This document shows positions 5,684-16,285 of a DNA stretch of 61,426 nt, in pieces. The stretch spans positions 1-61,426 of IMG/VR virus record IMGVR_UViG_3300044297_000148; one strand, given 5' to 3'. The DNA is from a virus (lineage: Duplodnaviria > Caudoviricetes). Position numbers and translations under genes: made by a program. Each line of letters starts with the position of its first letter. Position 1 is the stretch's first letter. Under the pieces are notes generated by a model. The model had not been told where the DNA came from. It did no database searches and saw nothing but the letters and a program-made list of their open reading frames with translations.

Positions 5684-6757
5684 TTAAACCATCCAGTGAT
5701 TCTGAGTAGCCCACACCACGAAAGAGCGATTCTCGATGGCGATGTTGCGCTTGGGCGAGGTGAGCACCTGCATGGCAAAGACACCCTGATATTCCTTGGG
5801 CAGGCGCTGGCAATATGTCATCCACGGGGTGAAGCTTTCCTTCGTCACGGAAGAAATAGCACCAAACACCGTCACGAAGTTAGCCGCGAAGTCCTGCGCG
5901 CTTGGCACGCTTGCCGTGTCCGGGGTAGCAATGATCGACTCCCATGAAGCCAGCCGGTCAAAGGTCTGCGCGAAGCCAAGCATGTCGGTGCCCGCAGCAT
6001 CCCCTACCGTGCCACACAACCCCGCAGCCGTGGCGTTCTCACCGATCTTGTGGCGCTGATGCATGATGTGACTTGCCTTCTCAAGTGAACGCGGTGAGAC
6101 AAACGGGCGATTGGTTTTTCCCGGGTAAAAGATGTAAGGGTTGTCCTTCACGCCGTCCATGTAGGAGTCAAGGCACATGGGGAAGCGCTTAACCCATGCA
6201 AGCACTACCGGGTGGACGTTGTTGGCCATGCCCCAAGGAAGCCATTGCTCGGCGGAGGGTTTGCGAACCGTGACGAATGCAACCCGGTTCATGGCATGGG
6301 CCTGCATCATGTCGCCAAGCCCTTCAGCGGCAAGGTTTGTCGTGGCAAACCGGATGCTGCCTTTGGGCAGCGAATACTCCCCAACCTTGCCCTCGTGCAG
6401 CAGGCGCAGCATGGAATTCTGCACGGGACGCGATGCCTTGCCAATCTCATCGGCCATGAAGATCACCGGTGCCCCGTGTTGCAGGTTGAGCAGCGCATTG
6501 GGCGCGAAGCTTGTTACCTTCATGCCGTTGACTACCTCAGTGAAAGGCACTCCACCAATATCGGAGACATCGAAAGTGGGCAGGTCGGCATAGACCATGC
6601 GATACCCGGGCATGCGGCTACCCAGTACGTTGAGGATCGAAGATTTGCCCATGCCCATCTCGCCTTGAAATACAAGGGTCACTTCTGACCCAACGTACTG
6701 CACCATGTCAGCGGCTTCGGTGAGGCTTACCGATACTCCGAGCTTCATTTCGTTCAT
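5684..6757 (-). CDS. MoxR-like AAA+ ATPase
   Basis: Walker A GEMGMGKS, Walker B FMADE, sensor ATTN, SPRS motif. Confidence 0.9.
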   Translation of the reverse strand: MNEMKLGVSVSLTEAADMVQYVGSEVTLVFQGEMGMGKSSILNVLGSRMPGYRMVYADLPTFDVSDIGGVPFTEVVNGMKVTSFAPNALLNLQHGAPVIFMADEIGKASRPVQNSMLRLLHEGKVGEYSLPKGSIRFATTNLAAEGLGDMMQAHAMNRVAFVTVRKPSAEQWLPWGMANNVHPVVLAWVKRFPMCLDSYMDGVKDNPYIFYPGKTNRPFVSPRSLEKASHIMHQRHKIGENATAAGLCGTVGDAAGTDMLGFAQTFDRLASWESIIATPDTASVPSAQDFAANFVTVFGAISSVTKESFTPWMTYCQRLPKEYQGVFAMQVLTSPKRNIAIENRSFVVWATQNHWMV

Positions 6758-7292
6758 GTTGTCTCTCCTGTCGTTTTGTAAATATTTTATTAGCGAGCAT
6801 CATTTCTATGTTTGCTCTTGCTTCTTCCAAGTGATACCAAGCCATGCTTGTCGCGGGTGGGTTTTTCTTTTCTTCCTCCTTCATTCGGTTGTACTTGTCC
6901 CATACAGCGAGCATCATTTCTATGTTTGCTCTTGCTTCTTCCAAGTGATACCAAGCCATGCTTGTCGCAGGTGGGTTTTTCTTTTCTTCCTCCTTCATTC
7001 GGTTGTACTTGTCCCATACAGCGCGCACAGCGTTGATGCGCACAGTGTCTGTTGCGTGAAGCACGCGGACCGGAGCACCTTCATAGAGATGCAGCAACAC
7101 CAAAAATTGACCGCCCCGTTCAGTCAACGGGATAACCCCCAGCCGCGCACCATCGAACTTGAGCAGCGCTTCTATTTCGTCTTCACGTAGATCTATTTGG
7201 CACCTCCTCTTTTGTTTTCTCTTCCACACTTTCCTTTGCCAAGCGCTTGAAGCGGGCGATGTTATTTTTGAGGGCGCGAGGATCACCGGCAT
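6708..7292 (-). CDS. Hypothetical protein with internal 38-aa duplication (start uncertain)
   Basis: AVWDKYNR...IEMML occurs twice in frame. Confidence 0.5.
   Translation of the reverse strand: MPVILAPSKITSPASSAWQRKVWKRKQKRRCQIDLREDEIEALLKFDGARLGVIPLTERGGQFLVLLHLYEGAPVRVLHATDTVRINAVRAVWDKYNRMKEEEKKNPPATSMAWYHLEEARANIEMMLAVWDKYNRMKEEEKKNPPATSMAWYHLEEARANIEMMLANKIFTKRQERQHERNEARSIGKPHRSR
6792..7022. repeat. 114-bp tandem duplication
   Basis: Units start at 6792 and 6906, one mismatch (cgcggg vs cgcagg). Confidence 0.9.
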
Positions 7293-9254: not shown

Positions 9255-10346
9255 TCACTGATACTGTTTATCAAGATCGGTTGCCATGTCCATGAGCAAG
9301 TCCGCAATATCCTCGGGGTGAGCCGTGCGCACGTAGTTCACCAGTTCCTGAAAGCGCATGTTGACGATATCCCCCGGCTCCAGATACTCGTAACCCGTGA
9401 ACCCGTTGCTTTTGCCTGACTCGTTAGCGGCGAAACTGTTGTACGCCGAGCCTTTCCTGTAGAACCAGCCATTCGTATCGAACCCGCCACCATAGTCCAC
9501 CACGCTTGGGTCACGCTTGGCAGGGAGCTTGTCGCGTACCTTGGGATCACTGAAGACCGCGATGAAAGCATCGGTCAGACGCCGCAGATAGTCAATGTCC
9601 AGATACTCATCGCCCGAGTGCTCGTTCTCATAGCCAACGGAAATGTTGGTGCATTCTGAAATGACGTCGGTGTAGTTGGCAGTGTCAGTGAAGACGCCGG
9701 TGTCGTCGGGATGCAGGTCAACCTCGGGCTGCGCCGCGTGCAGCAAGTCACCAAGCGCAAGTGCAAACGCCTGCGATGCGCATACCCCGGTCATCTGTTC
9801 CGTGATGATGGCGTTCGTCCCGCGCCTGTCAAAGGCAATGGCGATATCGAACTGCGCGAGGAACTCCCTGTGATGCAATGACATGCCGCGTGAACCGATA
9901 CCGCCACGCTCTTCGCCCCTGTGAAAAATATAAGTACCGGGCACCCCGGCGCTGATCATGCGCCGCATCAACCACACCCCCGCAGCATCATCAGCACCGA
10001 GCGGGCGCTTGTCATCCTTGTACACAAGCTGTGTCTGTTCATCGAACATGACATCTTGGCGCACGGGGTCGGTCATCGAATGCACGGTGTCGATGTGGGA
10101 CGAGAAAAGAATTCCGTGTGACAAGTCACACGCAGGCACGCCCACCTGCACGACATAGGCAAGCGCATTGCCCCCCGGATCAGTGTAGGTTGTCGGTTCC
10201 AGCGGCGCGATATAGTTCTTGTAGAACAGTTGCTCGCCTTCGCTGCCGTGGCAGCGCGTGAGCGTGAGCATTTCCAGCATTTCAGCGGTTGTCGTTTCCG
10301 TTTCCATGTTGTATCCCTGTTTCATTGTGTGTCGGTCAGAGGGCAA
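9255..10346 (-). CDS. M28/M20-type Zn peptidase
   Basis: SHIDTVH, GADDAAG, GEERGG, AFDRRG, HSGDE metal-ligand motifs. Confidence 0.85.
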   Translation of the reverse strand: MPSDRHTMKQGYNMETETTTAEMLEMLTLTRCHGSEGEQLFYKNYIAPLEPTTYTDPGGNALAYVVQVGVPACDLSHGILFSSHIDTVHSMTDPVRQDVMFDEQTQLVYKDDKRPLGADDAAGVWLMRRMISAGVPGTYIFHRGEERGGIGSRGMSLHHREFLAQFDIAIAFDRRGTNAIITEQMTGVCASQAFALALGDLLHAAQPEVDLHPDDTGVFTDTANYTDVISECTNISVGYENEHSGDEYLDIDYLRRLTDAFIAVFSDPKVRDKLPAKRDPSVVDYGGGFDTNGWFYRKGSAYNSFAANESGKSNGFTGYEYLEPGDIVNMRFQELVNYVRTAHPEDIADLLMDMATDLDKQYQ

Positions 10347-11991: not shown

Positions 11992-12025
11992 GTCGTCTCT
12001 CCGTTAACTACAGTTTTATTTTGTT

Positions 12026-12041
12026 GGGTCAGATCTGACCC
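12026..12041. promoter_or_regulatory. Palindrome family B, GGGTCAGATCTGACCC (also 13151-13166 and 13647-13662)
   Basis: 16-bp palindrome in three non-coding copies (13151 copy has one mismatch). Confidence 0.7.
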
Positions 12042-12068
12042 GGTGTTACTTCCTTTATTTCACTTCCT

Positions 12069-12281
12069 TTATTTCACTAACCCTCCCTTGTTGTTGAGAC
12101 CAACCAAGTCTTTCCTATCCGTTATCAGCATGTAGTTCCCCTTGTGCATCGGTGCCACGGTGTGCCGGATCTGCTTTGCTTGCTTCTCCCCGCACTCAAG
12201 GCATGTGCGGTAACCCAACACATAGCGGCGCGGGTCGATATCTTCCCCGCACGAACAGAACATGAACCCACCATTTCCCAT
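12069..12281 (-). CDS. TraR/DksA-type C4 zinc-finger small protein
   Basis: CSCGEDIDPRR...RTCLEC; TGATG coupling with the upstream gene. Confidence 0.6.
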   Translation of the reverse strand: MGNGGFMFCSCGEDIDPRRYVLGYRTCLECGEKQAKQIRHTVAPMHKGNYMLITDRKDLVGLNNKGGLVK

Positions 12282-13081
12282 CACATCGCTCCCTCGAAAC
12301 ACTCGTTGACCAATCGCGCAAATTCCGCGCGAGGGGCAGCGTAAGCAGCAGCGCCAGCAGCGCCAGCAGCGCCAGCAGCGCCAGCAGCGCCAGCAGCGCC
12401 AGCAACGCCAGCAACGCCAGCAACGCCAGCAACGCCAGCAACGCCAGCAACGCCAGCAACGCCAGCAACGCCAGCGGCGCGAGCAGCAGCGTAAGTATCA
12501 GCGGCGCGAGCAGCAGCGTAAGCAGCGCGAGCAGGGCGAGCAGCAGCGTAAGCAGCGTAAGCAGCGTAAGCAGCGCGAGCAGGGCGAGCAGCAACGTAAG
12601 CAGCGAAAGCAGCGTGAGTAGCAGCGTAAGCAGCGCGAGCAGCGCGAGCAGCAACGTAAGCAGCGAGAGCAGCGTCCGAAGCAGCGGCCCTTAGTTTCTC
12701 ATCGCCGGTCATTAGAAAGCCCAGCACCACCTCAGGCGGGTCTTGCTTCCACAGGTCAATCACGCTCAACGCCTGCATCCGCGCGAAGAACCGCAAAAGC
12801 TCCGTTGCGTCCATTCGCATCACGATCCGGCGCTCGGTGCAGGCGAGCTTGTCATTCTGGCGCACCACTTTTCCCCCACACTCAACAAGGCAAAGGGTTG
12901 CGCCCGGCGCGTATATCAGGGCGTCAAAGGGGTCGATTGAGGCGTGTAGCCCCTGTTGGCAGGGGATGGGTTCCCCGCGAAATACAAGCTTCTCCCCGTC
13001 TTTCGGGATGGGTTGACCATCGCGCAGGGTCTTGTCTACGAAATGCCATGCACGGATCGGTCTACGGGTTGTCATTGTCAT
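12281..13081 (-). CDS. Hypothetical protein with C-terminal Ala-rich repeats (DUF7666-like N-domain)
   Basis: AWHF...CQQGLHAS..PFDAL.YAPG domain, then AAYAA/AARAA and 9-bp (VAG/AAG)n tandems. Confidence 0.7.
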   Translation of the reverse strand: MTMTTRRPIRAWHFVDKTLRDGQPIPKDGEKLVFRGEPIPCQQGLHASIDPFDALIYAPGATLCLVECGGKVVRQNDKLACTERRIVMRMDATELLRFFARMQALSVIDLWKQDPPEVVLGFLMTGDEKLRAAASDAALAAYVAARAARAAYAATHAAFAAYVAARPARAAYAAYAAYAAARPARAAYAAARAADTYAAARAAGVAGVAGVAGVAGVAGVAGVAGVAGAAGAAGAAGAAGAAGAAAYAAPRAEFARLVNECFEGAM

Positions 13082-13107
13082 TGTCGTTTCTCCGTTTAGT
13101 TATGGGT

Positions 13108-13123
13108 GTGTGACATGTCACAC
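13108..13123. promoter_or_regulatory. Palindrome family A, GTGTGACATGTCACAC (also 13768, 14480, 14611 with 1 mismatch, 14676; core at 15396)
   Basis: Six copies, all non-coding, two next to sigma70 promoters. Confidence 0.75.
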
Positions 13124-13739
13124 GGCTTTACGCTGCGCTTTAAGGGCGTTGGGTCAGTTCTGACCCAGCGCAAACCCGAGCAAACCCAACCCAAAGCGCA
13201 TCGCAAAACCGGACCTTGCGGCCCGGTTCCCTTTAATTAATCTACTGAAGATGTCTGTATTGTTTCGGCGCTGGCGTTTCTACCAGTGGGGTTCTAGCCC
13301 ATAGTAGGCAGAGTGATCTGCCTTGTTAGCCACGCGGGGGGAACGGAACCGGGCTCCTGTCACGAGACACCGATTAAAGGGTCGACACATGCTAGCCGTA
13401 CTGCTCCGATCCCCTTTGTCGTTACCCGTTCCCTGCCGCCCCTGCAAGCCTTTCCATCACGTCAGCTTTCGCACTCCAACCGCGTTTCGTATCCGGGGAA
13501 TTAGCTGGCTGGTACGGGTTTGCTTTGCTCTCGTGCATGGTGTTGCCGTGTCATGCACTACCCTAAGCTACTACCGAAACCCGCCGCCCCTTTTGAGCCA
13601 CGCCGCTAGCCTCTCATATGGGCATCAGAGGTGCCTCCGATGCGCTGGGTCAGATCTGACCCAACGCGATAAACTAACCCATGCGAGCCGTGCTACTACG
13701 CCAAAGCTCTGGCATTGCATTGCAGGTTGTTGCACCAAA

Positions 13740-13752
13740 TTGTTAAAGAACG
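13740..13752 (-). promoter_or_regulatory. boxA antitermination element (CGTTCTTTAACAA)
   Basis: Matches the rrn-type boxA consensus, about 65 nt after the leftward promoter. Confidence 0.65.
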
Positions 13753-13824
13753 AGCGGAGCGCAGCGCGTGTGACATGTCACACGGCCTTTACTTGCGCCT
13801 TACTTATACTTCTACTACACCCCC

Positions 13825-13853
13825 ATTCTAACATAGGTCAAGGTATTTGTCAA
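13825..13853 (-). promoter_or_regulatory. Strong sigma70 early promoter
   Basis: TTGACA-17 nt-TAGAAT on the minus strand. Confidence 0.85.
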
Positions 13854-13929
13854 GTGTTTTAAAAGTAATCCTGAGCGTGATTTGTGGGTATTTTGCGTGA
13901 TTGGGCACGTAAAAAAGTGCCGAAACCAC

Positions 13930-13974
13930 TTGACGGGCGGCGAATTTGGGTGCTAACCTGCGCGCAGGTTAGCA
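13930..13974 (+). promoter_or_regulatory. Promoter-like element overlapped by palindrome C, TGCTAACCTGCGCGCAGGTTAGCA (also 14423-14467, 14540-14584)
   Basis: TTGAC[GA]-18 nt-(TGC)TAACCT in all three copies; perfect 24-bp palindrome. Confidence 0.65.
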
Positions 13975-14107
13975 GTTAGAGAGCGAAGAAGGGGCACGGG
14001 TTTTGAGGGGGAAAGGGCGAAAAGGGCCATGCAATCATAGATGTGGCGAAATGTTCCTAGAGTGTGGTGTGAAGTGTGTGGGGCAAGTGGCTGAATGCGT
14101 TGAGAAG

Positions 14108-14325
14108 TTCAATTGTTCCAATTGTTCCAGAGGCAAAACACGTTCTGGCAAAAAATCGCGGGTGGGGCCGTTCTAAAAAAACATTTTAAAAATAGAACTT
14201 TTTCTGGGGGGATATATATATCTAAAAAGTAAGAACAATTGGAACAATTGAAACAATTAGAACAATAACAACAACTTAGCGCTGGAACATCATAAGAACA
14301 TTTCGGAACAATTAAGAACAATTGG
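14108..14325. repeat. GAACAAT iteron-like repeats around an AT-rich core; putative replication origin
   Basis: 2 inverted plus about 8 direct (some degenerate) copies flanking AAAAAACATTTTAAAAATAG...GATATATATATC. Confidence 0.55.
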
Positions 14326-14405
14326 CAAGTGCCTGATTGCATTAAAAAAAGTGCCTCCTCCCTCGCATAGTGACCACTAACTTACTTTAGCTCCAGCCCG
14401 GAAAA

Positions 14406-14589
14406 CGGCTTGCTATTGCCACTTGACAAGCTCGCAGTCTGGGTGCTAACCTGCGCGCAGGTTAGCAGTTACCCTCGCCGTGTGACATGTCACACGCCTT
14501 TCCGCCTCACCCTGCTCTATTCCGGCTTGCTATTGCCACTTGACAAGCTTGCAGTCTGGGTGCTAACCTGCGCGCAGGTTAGCAGTTAC
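14406..14589. repeat. 67-bp direct repeat (14406-14472 / 14523-14589)
   Basis: One mismatch; each copy contains TTGACA and palindrome C and is followed by palindrome A. Confidence 0.85.
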
Positions 14590-14827
14590 AACGCAACCAA
14601 AAACCACCCCGTGTGACATGTTACACGCCCGCCCTTTGCATCGCCAGTTCCCGCGCAACGCGCGGCATTCTCCCCGTGTGACATGTCACACGGCCCCCTC
14701 ACGCACTCGCACACACACTCTCACACCCGCGCACTCTCACACACTCACACTCTCACACCCGCGCACTCACCCTCTCTCGCTCTCCCGCCGCCAGAGAACT
14801 GGCGAGAAGCCCGCGCAACGCGCGGGC

Positions 14828-14855
14828 AAAAAAACCCCGGCGAAAGCCGGGGTTT
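14828..14855 (-). terminator. Rho-independent terminator
   Basis: CCCCGGC-TTTC-GCCGGGG stem plus U7 just after the 14860-15306 stop. Confidence 0.85.
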
Positions 14856-14859
14856 AGTG

Positions 14860-15306
14860 CTACTTTTTGGCCTTGGCCGGGAGCAGCGCTCCCAAGGCCT
14901 CAAATGCCGCCAAAACCCGGGGGATATCAACCCCCGGAACCCCTTCTTGCTGTTTCCAGTATTCTACGCTCGGGCCGACATCGGCCCGTGAACGGATCGC
15001 GCTGGCCACGCGACCAGCCTTCTTCTTCCCGCCTTTCTTCTTTCCGGGAAAAAGCCTTGAGTACGCTTGCCTCGCGGCATCGTACGCTTTCCGGGCGCGA
15101 TCCGACAGCGCCTTGACACTCTTGACCTTACCCCCCGCGAGGCCATCGGCCTCGCGAATTGCTAGGTAAAATGCGGCGCGGACATCGCCCCGTTTCGCTG
15201 GGGGTACTCCGGTGAACAAGTCGCGGACATCGTCCGCGACTTTCGTTTCACCATCAGCGTACGCATAGCAGGACAAAACTGCCATGCGCATTAAGCTTCT
15301 ATCCAT
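14860..15306 (-). CDS. Basic hypothetical protein in its own transcription unit (likely immediate-early)
   Basis: AGGAG RBS, own promoter and terminator; Lys-rich patch KKKGGKKK. Confidence 0.75.
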   Translation of the reverse strand: MDRSLMRMAVLSCYAYADGETKVADDVRDLFTGVPPAKRGDVRAAFYLAIREADGLAGGKVKSVKALSDRARKAYDAARQAYSRLFPGKKKGGKKKAGRVASAIRSRADVGPSVEYWKQQEGVPGVDIPRVLAAFEALGALLPAKAKK

Positions 15307-15360
15307 TCCAATCTCCTGTATCGGTGCGCTTCCGTTCGGTTCGCATTTCCGACGCCCCGA

Positions 15361-15388
15361 ATCATACTCCTATAAAATGTTTTGTCAA
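15361..15388 (-). promoter_or_regulatory. Sigma70 promoter for the 14860-15306 gene
   Basis: TTGACA-16 nt-TATGAT; palindrome A core at 15396-15407 just upstream. Confidence 0.75.
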
Positions 15389-15640
15389 ACTTTTTGTGAC
15401 ATGTCACGTAAGTTGACCCCACTACCCCGCCACCCCCCGCTGTAATTTTGGAGTCCCGCCCGCGCGCTCCTTGCTGTGTTTTGCACCCACGTCCCCCACT
15501 TCCTTCACTTTTTCCCACACATTTTTTCTACAGACGACCCCACCCCCCTCAATATAGAAACCCACCCCCTTTGTTTTTTGGTTCCATGTTTTCATGGTTT
15601 TATGTTATTTTCTGCATGCAAATTAAACTAGGGGCAACCC

Positions 15641-16285
15641 TTGCAAAGCCAACCTGAGCCTTTACTGGTGCACCCAGAGCCCAACGTGGCTCCTGATCCG
15701 GTGTCCCTGAAATCGATGTCGCTCTTTGAGCGGGCGCATCTTGCGTGCAGCACCATCAAGGCGCTTTTCCCCGAGGACTATGAGTGCCCACCCGACGAGG
15801 CCGAACAGCAATACGCACGCTCGGCTTTCACTTCAATCGTCGGTGTCGACCCCGACAAGGGCGAAAAAGTACCCACTCCCAAGGAGTTCACCCCGGACTT
15901 CTCCGCGCCTGCGCTGCGCATGCTCGATACCCTTCTTTCCGAGTACGACAAGGAGTTGGTCAATAGCGCTGCACGCATCCGGGAGTACGTGAAGAACAAG
16001 CTCCTTGAGGAATCAAGCAACCCGGACGGGAAAATCAGGATCAGGGCACTTGAACTGCTTGGCAAGATGCGTGATGTCGGCCTTTTCAGCGACCGCATTG
16101 AAATTACGCACAAATCCAAGTCTGACGACGAACTGACTGACGAATTGACCAAGAAAATAGAGCACTTCATGGGCGATGCCGTGCTCGTTGACCCCGATAG
16201 CGACGAGAACCCGGAGGATGAAGACGAAGAAGACCGGCCCCTGTCCTCTGCCAAGCACCTGCAGATTGAATCGATCCTTTCCTGA
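15641..16285 (+). CDS. terS: Terminase small subunit (putative; start uncertain)
   Basis: Directly upstream of TerL; RIRALELLGK...GLF motif. Confidence 0.65.
   Translation: MQSQPEPLLVHPEPNVAPDPVSLKSMSLFERAHLACSTIKALFPEDYECPPDEAEQQYARSAFTSIVGVDPDKGEKVPTPKEFTPDFSAPALRMLDTLLSEYDKELVNSAARIREYVKNKLLEESSNPDGKIRIRALELLGKMRDVGLFSDRIEITHKSKSDDELTDELTKKIEHFMGDAVLVDPDSDENPEDEDEEDRPLSSAKHLQIESILS

Follow-up and report, generated by a model that had tools for sequence, protein, structure and literature searches.

A host-type boxA and a covariation-supported RNA fold in the early-operon leader of an uncultured freshwater phage group

The leader of the leftward early operon was analysed in a 61,426-base virus record (IMGVR_UViG_3300044297_000148; Duplodnaviria, Caudoviricetes) that was taken at its whole length, is estimated to be 97% complete and is referred to here as the window. 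The leader begins at a sigma-70-type early promoter on the minus strand (13825–13853; TTGACA-17-TAGAAT, with TG before the −10) that matches at 11 of 12 positions, and transcription probably starts near 13818. The first credible open reading frame (ORF; 12281–13081, minus strand) has a Shine–Dalgarno GGAG (13093–90) 8 nt before its ATG (13081–79; the two together spanning 13079–13093) and matches DUF7666 from residue 10 onward, leaving ~737 nt untranslated between the promoter and the ATG at 13081. Both the leftward consensus promoter at 13853–13825 and a first ORF ~740 nt beyond it had been proposed in an initial annotation of the sequence, and both were recovered here. The same annotation described the gap as one large folded RNA of ~0.7 kb; a conserved fold is indeed present, but it covers ~200 nt and the middle of the gap is variable, and the leader is a composite, modular structure (5' hairpin and boxA, variable middle, 3' fold, terminal hairpins) rather than a single 0.7-kb fold. 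Its only conserved parts are the ~200 nt at 13451–13253 and a promoter-proximal hairpin/boxA module of ~100 nt.

In the direction of transcription, and all on the minus strand, the leader starts with a 16-nt perfect palindrome, GUGUGACAUGUCACAC (palA-5', 13768–13783), a candidate hairpin or operator upstream of boxA, which is followed by the boxA element itself, GUUCUUUAACA (13741–13751), set in a conserved stretch at 13736–13753. The variable middle of ~285 nt comes next (13452–13735), and no alignable counterpart of it was found in the relatives described below; it contains the hairpins 13622–43 and 13533–58 and the helix 13515–21/13577–83 enclosing the latter, which are present as initially annotated and for or against which nothing speaks beyond the sequence itself. 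The conserved two-domain fold (199 nt, 13253–13451) is followed, 25 nt after its tail, by a GC-rich terminator-like hairpin at 13203–13228 (CCGGGCC-GCAA-GGUCCGG, then UUUU), and then in order by the second copies of two palindromes, palB-3' and palA-3', and the ribosome site.

Related leaders were gathered as syntenic loci from viral and metagenome contigs by exact-pattern and protein-anchored scans. Complete leaders were obtained at L009, L010, L014, L106, L107, L108, L110, L111 and L116, while the L095 sequence is truncated 5' of the fold, before the point at which boxA would lie, the L114 and L115 contigs end just past the fold, and the remaining loci duplicate contigs already in the set (L113 and L092 that of L014, L109 and L096 that of L009, L094 that of L010). 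No match to 12900–14100 was returned by blastn from 50,697 records of cultured phages, and a protein search of viral contigs with the window's 551-aa early protein alone recovered no related loci; an alignment of four homologues of that protein then retrieved 15 loci. The palindrome and core patterns matched only 1 and 2 viral contigs, respectively. In every complete leader, a consensus sigma-70 promoter is accompanied by a palindromic hairpin particular to that phage and a boxA-like element, and these are followed by an interval that does not align across lineages, the conserved block, and one or more hairpins, among them the palindrome of that phage in a second copy. A consensus promoter occupies the equivalent place in L009, L010, L014, L106, L107, L108, L110, L111 and L114–116, and the first gene of the complete leaders lies 590–740 nt from it. 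The eight leaders compared are followed by seven unrelated proteins, and because the first gene differs between phages the fold is tied to the head of the operon and not to a specific gene.

The fold consists of two abutting domains. In domain A, helices P0 (13441–36/13337–32) and P0b (13433–26/13346–39) close a three-way junction with Pa (13417–12/13381–76) and Pb (13372–13350); P0b pairs 13426–33 with 13339–46 (GGGAACGG/CCGUUCCC) and differs in sequence yet is fully paired in each lineage, while Pa pairs 13412–17 with 13376–81 (AAAGGG/CCCUUU). The Pa loop is UGGUCAA in most lineages, and Pb is interrupted by an internal UGU/C loop and capped, in most lineages including the window, by the hairpin loop GUGACAG. 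Domain B starts directly after the 3' strand of P0 and comprises P1 (13331–28/13270–67), P2 (13323–06), P3 (13301–13287) and P4 (13286–13271), followed by an A/C-rich tail (AAACAAAACCGAC or similar) that ends at 13253. In the L014 type, P1 (GGCU/AGCC) closes around P3 and P4; the window, L009 and the L095 type have P2 in addition, and domain B of L010 is a single hairpin, so that the domain ranges from one hairpin to a four-way junction and the whole fold from 150 to 225 nt across the family. In the window copy, P0 and P1 are weaker, each containing one mismatch, and the Pa loop carries a 30-nt insertion and is not UGGUCAA; the score against model R2 and the pair counts given below nevertheless place the window in this new family of phage early-leader folds, which is defined by helices P0, P0b, Pa, Pb and P1 and the loop motifs UGGUCAA (Pa) and GUGACAG (Pb) downstream of a promoter and boxA. 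Kissing of UGAC in the Pb loop with GUCA in the Pa loop was considered and dropped, being possible in four lineages and not in the L095/L107/L108 type, and no covariation was seen between the Pb loop and palA.

Recognition of the fold rests on two covariance models of increasing reach. BLAST alone found just 83 nt shared with L009, and the first model, R1, built on this core, confirmed ten of twelve metagenome stretches (two of them the L009 and L014 contigs again; L112 and L117 were the unconfirmed two) as well as the window and L095. The core pattern also hit six stretches in species genomes, none of which (0/6) was confirmed by R1; they are chance matches and carry no information on the host. 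In an alignment of close relatives, conservation reached ~100 nt further upstream than the R1 core. The second model, R2, was trained solely on five L014/L106-type sequences and their own minimum-energy fold, the window being left out; it matched the window at 13451–13253 with 79.2 bits (E 1.2e-22) and also matched five loci belonging to other lineages, L009, L095, L107, L108 and L010 (E 2e-17 to 8e-10). The 3' domain is present in ten related metagenomic loci, representing ~6 lineages.

Base-pair substitutions in these sequences identify 13451–13253 as a new, covariation-supported RNA fold of the sense strand. Counts were made on the model-fitted alignment (11 rows, 10 distinct; 43 pairs; 408 cells), in which 95.1% of cells hold canonical pairs versus 79.5% in shuffles and compensatory changes on both sides occur in 21 of the 43 pairs. 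Shuffled alignments equalled the observed values in 0/500 cases for four of five measures and in 2/500 for the fifth, and sliding the partners by 1–3 columns lowered pairing to 34–46%. RNAalifold recovered the same fold from the 11-row alignment, with compensatory changes in 21 of 40 pairs, and a plain MAFFT alignment, which is independent of the model, still had them in 10 of 29. The strand can be assigned as well: G·U cells number 53 and A·C cells 1, and the complementary strand would pair in 82% of cells only. Because G·U so greatly exceeds A·C, the structure belongs to the minus-strand RNA, which is the sense of the early operon. The earlier proposal of a non-coding leftward leader with a folded RNA on the minus strand is borne out by these results, all of its listed helices and hairpins are present in the sequence (including 13207–28 with its GCAA loop), and three of them, 13339–46/13426–33, 13376–81/13412–17 and 13306–23, correspond to P0b, Pa and P2 and show compensatory changes in relatives.

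The fold matches no catalogued RNA. Rfam 15 gave no match at gathering score anywhere in the window and none at E <= 10 inside 13082–13825, in keeping with the initial statement that no known family could be assigned, and none at E <= 1 in the leaders of L009, L010, L014, L107 and L108. A likeness to ROOL or GOLLD in size or family had also been raised; it does not stand, as ~200 nt are conserved and no Rfam match lies in 13082–13825. ARAGORN predicted no transfer RNA or tmRNA genes in the window, and the four-way junction of domain B has a closing helix of 4 bp. A phage leader RNA of this kind was not found described in the literature searched, which was covered with a limited set of terms.

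The second conserved feature is boxA. The string GTTCTTTAACA at 13751–13741, on the transcribed (minus) strand ~70 nt into the transcript, is the sole and exact match in the window to GYTCTTTAANA, used here as a working consensus for the gamma-proteobacterial boxA (PMC5725501). An exact boxA occurs at the same position in five leaders (the window, L009, L010, L107 and L108), lying 20–110 nt from the −10 in the latter four, and the ~15 nt on its 3' side are also alike between lineages. A hairpin adjoins boxA in all complete leaders, with a spacing of 2 to ~47 nt and an order that varies (it is reversed in L009). In rrn operons, the boxB, boxA and boxC carried by a nascent transcript assemble a terminator-resistant polymerase, and in lambdoid phages boxA acts together with a phage-specific boxB hairpin and the protein N (PMC10250234). 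In the leaders analysed here, boxA would bind NusB/NusE and confer resistance to Rho. A long ribosome-free transcript is a classic Rho target, and a boxA at the head of the leader would be expected if the leader has to be transcribed in full.

Downstream of the fold, all lineages have an A/C-rich, G-poor tail, and in the window, L014, L009 and L010 the interval from the fold to the first gene holds terminator-like hairpins, which differ between these leaders. The window hairpin at 13203–13228 was skipped by a simple terminator scan because it is followed by only 4 U; its 5' arm is complementary to 13342–13354 inside the fold (13 nt, 92%). Two further candidates were set aside: a conserved terminator/anti-terminator switch, for which whole-length duplex folding of the domain against the downstream region, a crude test, yielded no signal beyond that of shuffles (z of −1.0 to +1.7), and a C-over-G skew as a hint of Rho loading, since the strongest C−G windows usually lie elsewhere than in the tail. 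As a separate observation on this part of the leader, the last ~100 nt before the first gene of L009, L010, L095, L107 and L108 share a GCACCC box, after which come a long hairpin and, just ahead of the ribosome site, a U-rich stretch, an arrangement that recurs before the second gene in L009 and is not present in the window. In L009 (2478–2510, minus strand) an 11-nt unit, CAGCTATTCAA, stands three times in tandem between the conserved fold and the 3' palindrome.

The reading preferred here, at roughly even odds (a probability of about 0.5), is that boxA protects the leader from Rho through Nus factors and that the new fold acts in cis to govern read-through into the early genes. Host RNA polymerase would enter the leftward leader from the consensus sigma-70 promoter, the hairpin and boxA ~70 nt in would load NusB, NusE (S10) and other Nus factors, and the polymerase so equipped would resist Rho, which would otherwise abort the 0.7-kb leader RNA because no ribosome covers it. 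We infer this step from the boxA match and from the established biology of rrn operons and lambda. The last 200 nt form, as covariation shows, a three-way junction (P0/P0b, Pa, Pb) abutting a three- or four-way junction (P1, P2–P4), and this fold would act jointly with the hairpins and U-rich stretches downstream of it to set the amount of transcription, or of intact mRNA, that reaches the early genes. The put-like antiterminator of the initial annotation is kept in part, as the exact boxA supports an anti-termination theme, but the signal is of the Nus-factor boxA type and not of the put type; nothing links the RNA to HK022 put itself, or to the protein sponge offered beside it, beyond its leader position.

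Several results weigh against this reading. At least one boxA match arose in 16 of 100 shuffles, so a single match in 61 kb is not significant alone and the evidential weight of boxA comes from where it lies along the transcript and from its recurrence there rather than from the match count; moreover, the element is imperfect in two lineages, with one mismatch in the L106/L111 type and two in the L014 type. The alignment rows represent ~6 lineages of one phage group and were fitted to the model structure, and for both reasons the covariation statistics overstate independence. The family is also narrow, R2 finding no match in five more distant related virus records, in which boxA-like strings occur at chance-like levels. 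Folding energy gives little help. The whole gap, as initially expected, folds better than its shuffles, but it does so on both strands alike (z = −5.81 minus, −5.51 plus; 20 shuffles each), which is no evidence for an RNA because palindromes and inverted repeats drive both strands; the 199-nt domain alone reaches z = −1.20 on the minus strand (22 of 200 shuffles fold as well) and +0.04 on the plus strand. Covariation and strand asymmetry are the evidence that counts, since folding energy does not discriminate. Finally, no terminator/anti-terminator alternative pairing is common to all lineages, and the complementarity between the fold and the terminator arm has no counterpart in the relatives, being confined to the window.

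A tentative alternative, given clearly less weight, is that the leader yields a stable non-coding RNA in the manner of rRNA, a strong promoter, hairpin and boxA driving the long untranslated transcript and RNase III cutting a leader–trailer helix so that the freed RNA or the 200-nt fold could act in trans on a host or phage target early in infection. Its basis is the pairing of the palindromes that flank the conserved RNA in every lineage with a sequence particular to each phage. In the window, the palA copies are joined by palB, a 26-nt near-palindrome on the minus strand whose 5' copy (palB-5', 13642–13667) would supply the leader strand of the helix and whose 3' copy (palB-3', 13146–13171) the trailer strand. 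The palB inverted repeat (27 nt, 96% complementary) gives 25 of 26 Watson–Crick pairs, a better fit than either copy with itself. Complementarity also extends beyond the palindromes, as AGCGCAGCG (13131–39) with palA-3' (13108–23), together spanning 13108–13139 on the minus strand, is complementary to GCGCUGCGCU (13758–67) with palA-5'. Predicted long-range pairing probabilities in the window are 0.97 for palA, 0.96 for palB and 0.45 for the extra 9-nt flank. In L107 the palindrome copies are exact reverse complements, asymmetric centre included, and the minimum-energy folds of L107 and L108 pair the two copies. The order of hairpin, boxA and leader–trailer helix is that of rrn operons (PMC10250234), and the independence of the fold from the downstream gene would suit an excised product. 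Against this, long-range pairing is found in three of seven leaders (the minimum-energy folds of L009, L010, L014 and L106 lack it), the L014 and L010 copies are direct repeats with mismatched centres, and palindromes alone guarantee some long-range complementarity. A more elaborate version, in which promoter, boxB-like hairpin, boxA and leader–trailer helix mimic an rRNA operon so as to mass-produce and excise, in the opening minutes of infection, a stable trans-acting RNA, for example a decoy or guide against host defence or the transcription machinery, while the terminator-resistant polymerase continues into the early genes, is regarded as rather doubtful.

It is unlikely that the fold is a riboswitch-like sensor for a small molecule or a host factor, with control over either the terminator-like hairpin or the loading of Rho onto the A/C-rich tail. 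Conservation across lineages extends to many unpaired positions (UGGUCAA in the Pa loop, GUGACAG in the Pb loop, AGAAAC in the P4 loop and AAACAAAACCGAC in the tail), the multi-junction architecture is compatible with it, the 5' arm of the window terminator could pair alternatively with 13342–13354, and the A/C-rich, G-poor tail is found in all lineages. However, the fold matches none of the known riboswitch classes, alternative pairings are not conserved, and variation of domain B from one hairpin to a four-way junction would be unusual for a ligand pocket. The conserved loops may themselves reflect only a short divergence time, because the lineages are closely related.

Less credible still is control at the level of DNA only, with the palindromes as operators for a phage regulator that loops the DNA between sites 660 and 496 bp apart beside a replication origin and the fold without function. 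The palA sequence, GTGTGACATGTCACAC, has seven matches at <=1 mismatch in the window versus 0.1 expected, six of them within 13,108–15,409, and palB (TGGGTCAGNNCTGACCCA) has four at <=2 mismatches versus 0.02 expected. Further palA copies lie at 14480–14495, 14611–14626, 14676–14691 and 15394–15409, outside the transcript; one is just upstream of the −35 of a second leftward promoter (15388–15361) and three follow the terminator of a 148-aa gene (14860–15306). This placement, near the other early promoter and iteron-like repeats, speaks for operators, and so does the possession of its own palindrome by each phage, which a cognate DNA-binding protein would lead one to expect. Left unexplained, however, are six helices that lie apart from the palindromes and show compensatory changes, and the 53:1 ratio of G·U to A·C. 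Intergenic palA- and palB-like hairpins (10115–32, 12025–42 and 6675–92), some of them U-tailed, also suit RNA hairpins better: the palA variant (10115–10132) is intergenic within the operon with a U-rich tail after it, and the palB-like hairpins lie between the genes for the 77-aa and 551-aa proteins (12025–12042) and at the overlap of ORFs 5684–6757 and 6708–7292 (6675–6692), where they may be sites of intercistronic processing or attenuation. The palindromes could serve as operators, as RNA processing sites or as both.

The notion that small protein-coding ORFs tile the gap can be dismissed with near certainty: minus-strand ORFs of 33–55 codons exist (e.g. 13280–13447) and one domain B frame gives similar peptides in the window and L009, but they begin with TTG or GTG and lack a ribosome-binding site, no reading frame stays free of stops through the domain in all members (in L014, for example, the shared frame is open for 13 codons only), and substitutions preserve base pairs rather than amino acids.

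Leftward genes fill the region from ~15,300 down to 1 and include a primase/helicase-like protein, an HNH endonuclease, an ATPase, several uncharacterised proteins and, at the far end, helicases and a polymerase fragment; rightward genes start at 15,641 and encode the terminase, portal and structural proteins. By large terminase, the closest cultured relatives are the Pelagibacter phages HTVC027P and HTVC023P (~47% identity), the metagenomes containing window DNA are labelled freshwater, no RNA run was listed as containing the leader, and no integrase or repressor turned up among the scanned proteins of the window. The first early gene (12281–13081, minus strand) joins its DUF7666 domain to an Ala-rich tail of GVA/GAA repeats that draws weak collagen and tail-fibre matches, probably owing to low complexity. 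A 77-aa protein (12069–12302, minus strand), which is also encoded by the second or third early gene in L009 and L014, has no Pfam or PHROG match and contains two CxxC pairs; their spacing may resemble that of TraR/DksA-type zinc ribbons.

Several repeats occur upstream of the early promoter. At 14108–14127 and 14224–14274, inverted and tandem 9-bp repeats (GAACAATTG-like, four tandem copies) flank an alternating TA stretch (~14205–14215) just upstream of the promoter, and the region 14108–14274 looks like a putative iteron-type replication origin; at the corresponding place, L009 and L014 carry a TA run and short repeats of other sequence. Three copies of a perfect 22-bp palindrome, GCTAACCTGCGCGCAGGTTAGC, are present (13951–13974, 14445–14466 and 14562–14583), two of them within a direct repeat of ~60 bp that continues into CTTGTCAAGTGGCAATAGCAAGCC. 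An imperfect, GT-rich microsatellite (GTGAGTGTGTGAGAG...) occupies 14700–14800, after the strong terminator that ends the 148-aa gene, and a GGGTGAGC repeat is found at the matching place in L009 (3700–3800).

Elements of the leader recall several known systems. With rrn leaders it has in common a hairpin with a boxA exact to the gamma-proteobacterial consensus and a long, structured, untranslated transcript, and the flanks of the structured part pair around it, in the window as in two relatives, like the pre-rRNA leader–trailer helix (PMC10250234). It differs in that it belongs to a phage early operon, encloses an RNA unrelated to rRNA and has protein genes on the same transcript, and in that the spacing and order of hairpin and boxA vary between relatives. 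The lambdoid nut sites are similar in placing, close to the promoter, a constant boxA beside a hairpin that differs per phage (PMC10250234). The arrangement departs from a lambda-type nut in the order of hairpin then boxA, seen in most members including the window, and in the spacing of 2 to ~47 nt, no search for an N homologue having been made; the hairpin is moreover a perfect palindrome of 16–18 nt that is also found far from boxA and outside the transcript, and boxA here has the full rrn-type consensus. An rrn-type boxA is not known to need N. The put sites of HK022, cis-acting anti-terminator RNAs of ~70 nt with two stem-loops in early leaders, likewise represent structured RNA in the leader of a phage early operon with no dedicated downstream gene product, but compared with that description the present leader has a 150–225-nt fold with two multi-helix junctions, and a boxA. 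The CI RNA of P4 and the C4 RNA of P1/P7 are immunity RNAs processed from the leader of the operon they control, and share with the present case a functional RNA in an untranslated phage early leader; the difference is that no Rfam match was found here, which extends to C4 if that family is included in release 15. In Salmonella, boxA is reportedly found upstream of long non-coding transcripts of CRISPR arrays, which would be comparable as a boxA heading a long untranslated transcript exposed to Rho, whereas here it heads a phage leader followed by protein-coding genes.

To our knowledge, little has been learned outside the lambdoid phages about how host polymerase is kept going through early regions, and we know of only a handful of cases of RNA-based early-operon control (put, P4 CI and P1 C4). 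The group of uncultured freshwater phages described here pairs a full-consensus, host-type boxA with a new RNA fold of 150–225 nt that has no database match. If the fold controls read-through, it would represent a new class of leader regulator, and if it is excised, it would be a new phage non-coding RNA made in the manner of rRNA. In either case, the leader provides a concrete, testable RNA element with defined ends and helices, amenable to reporter study without the identity of the host.

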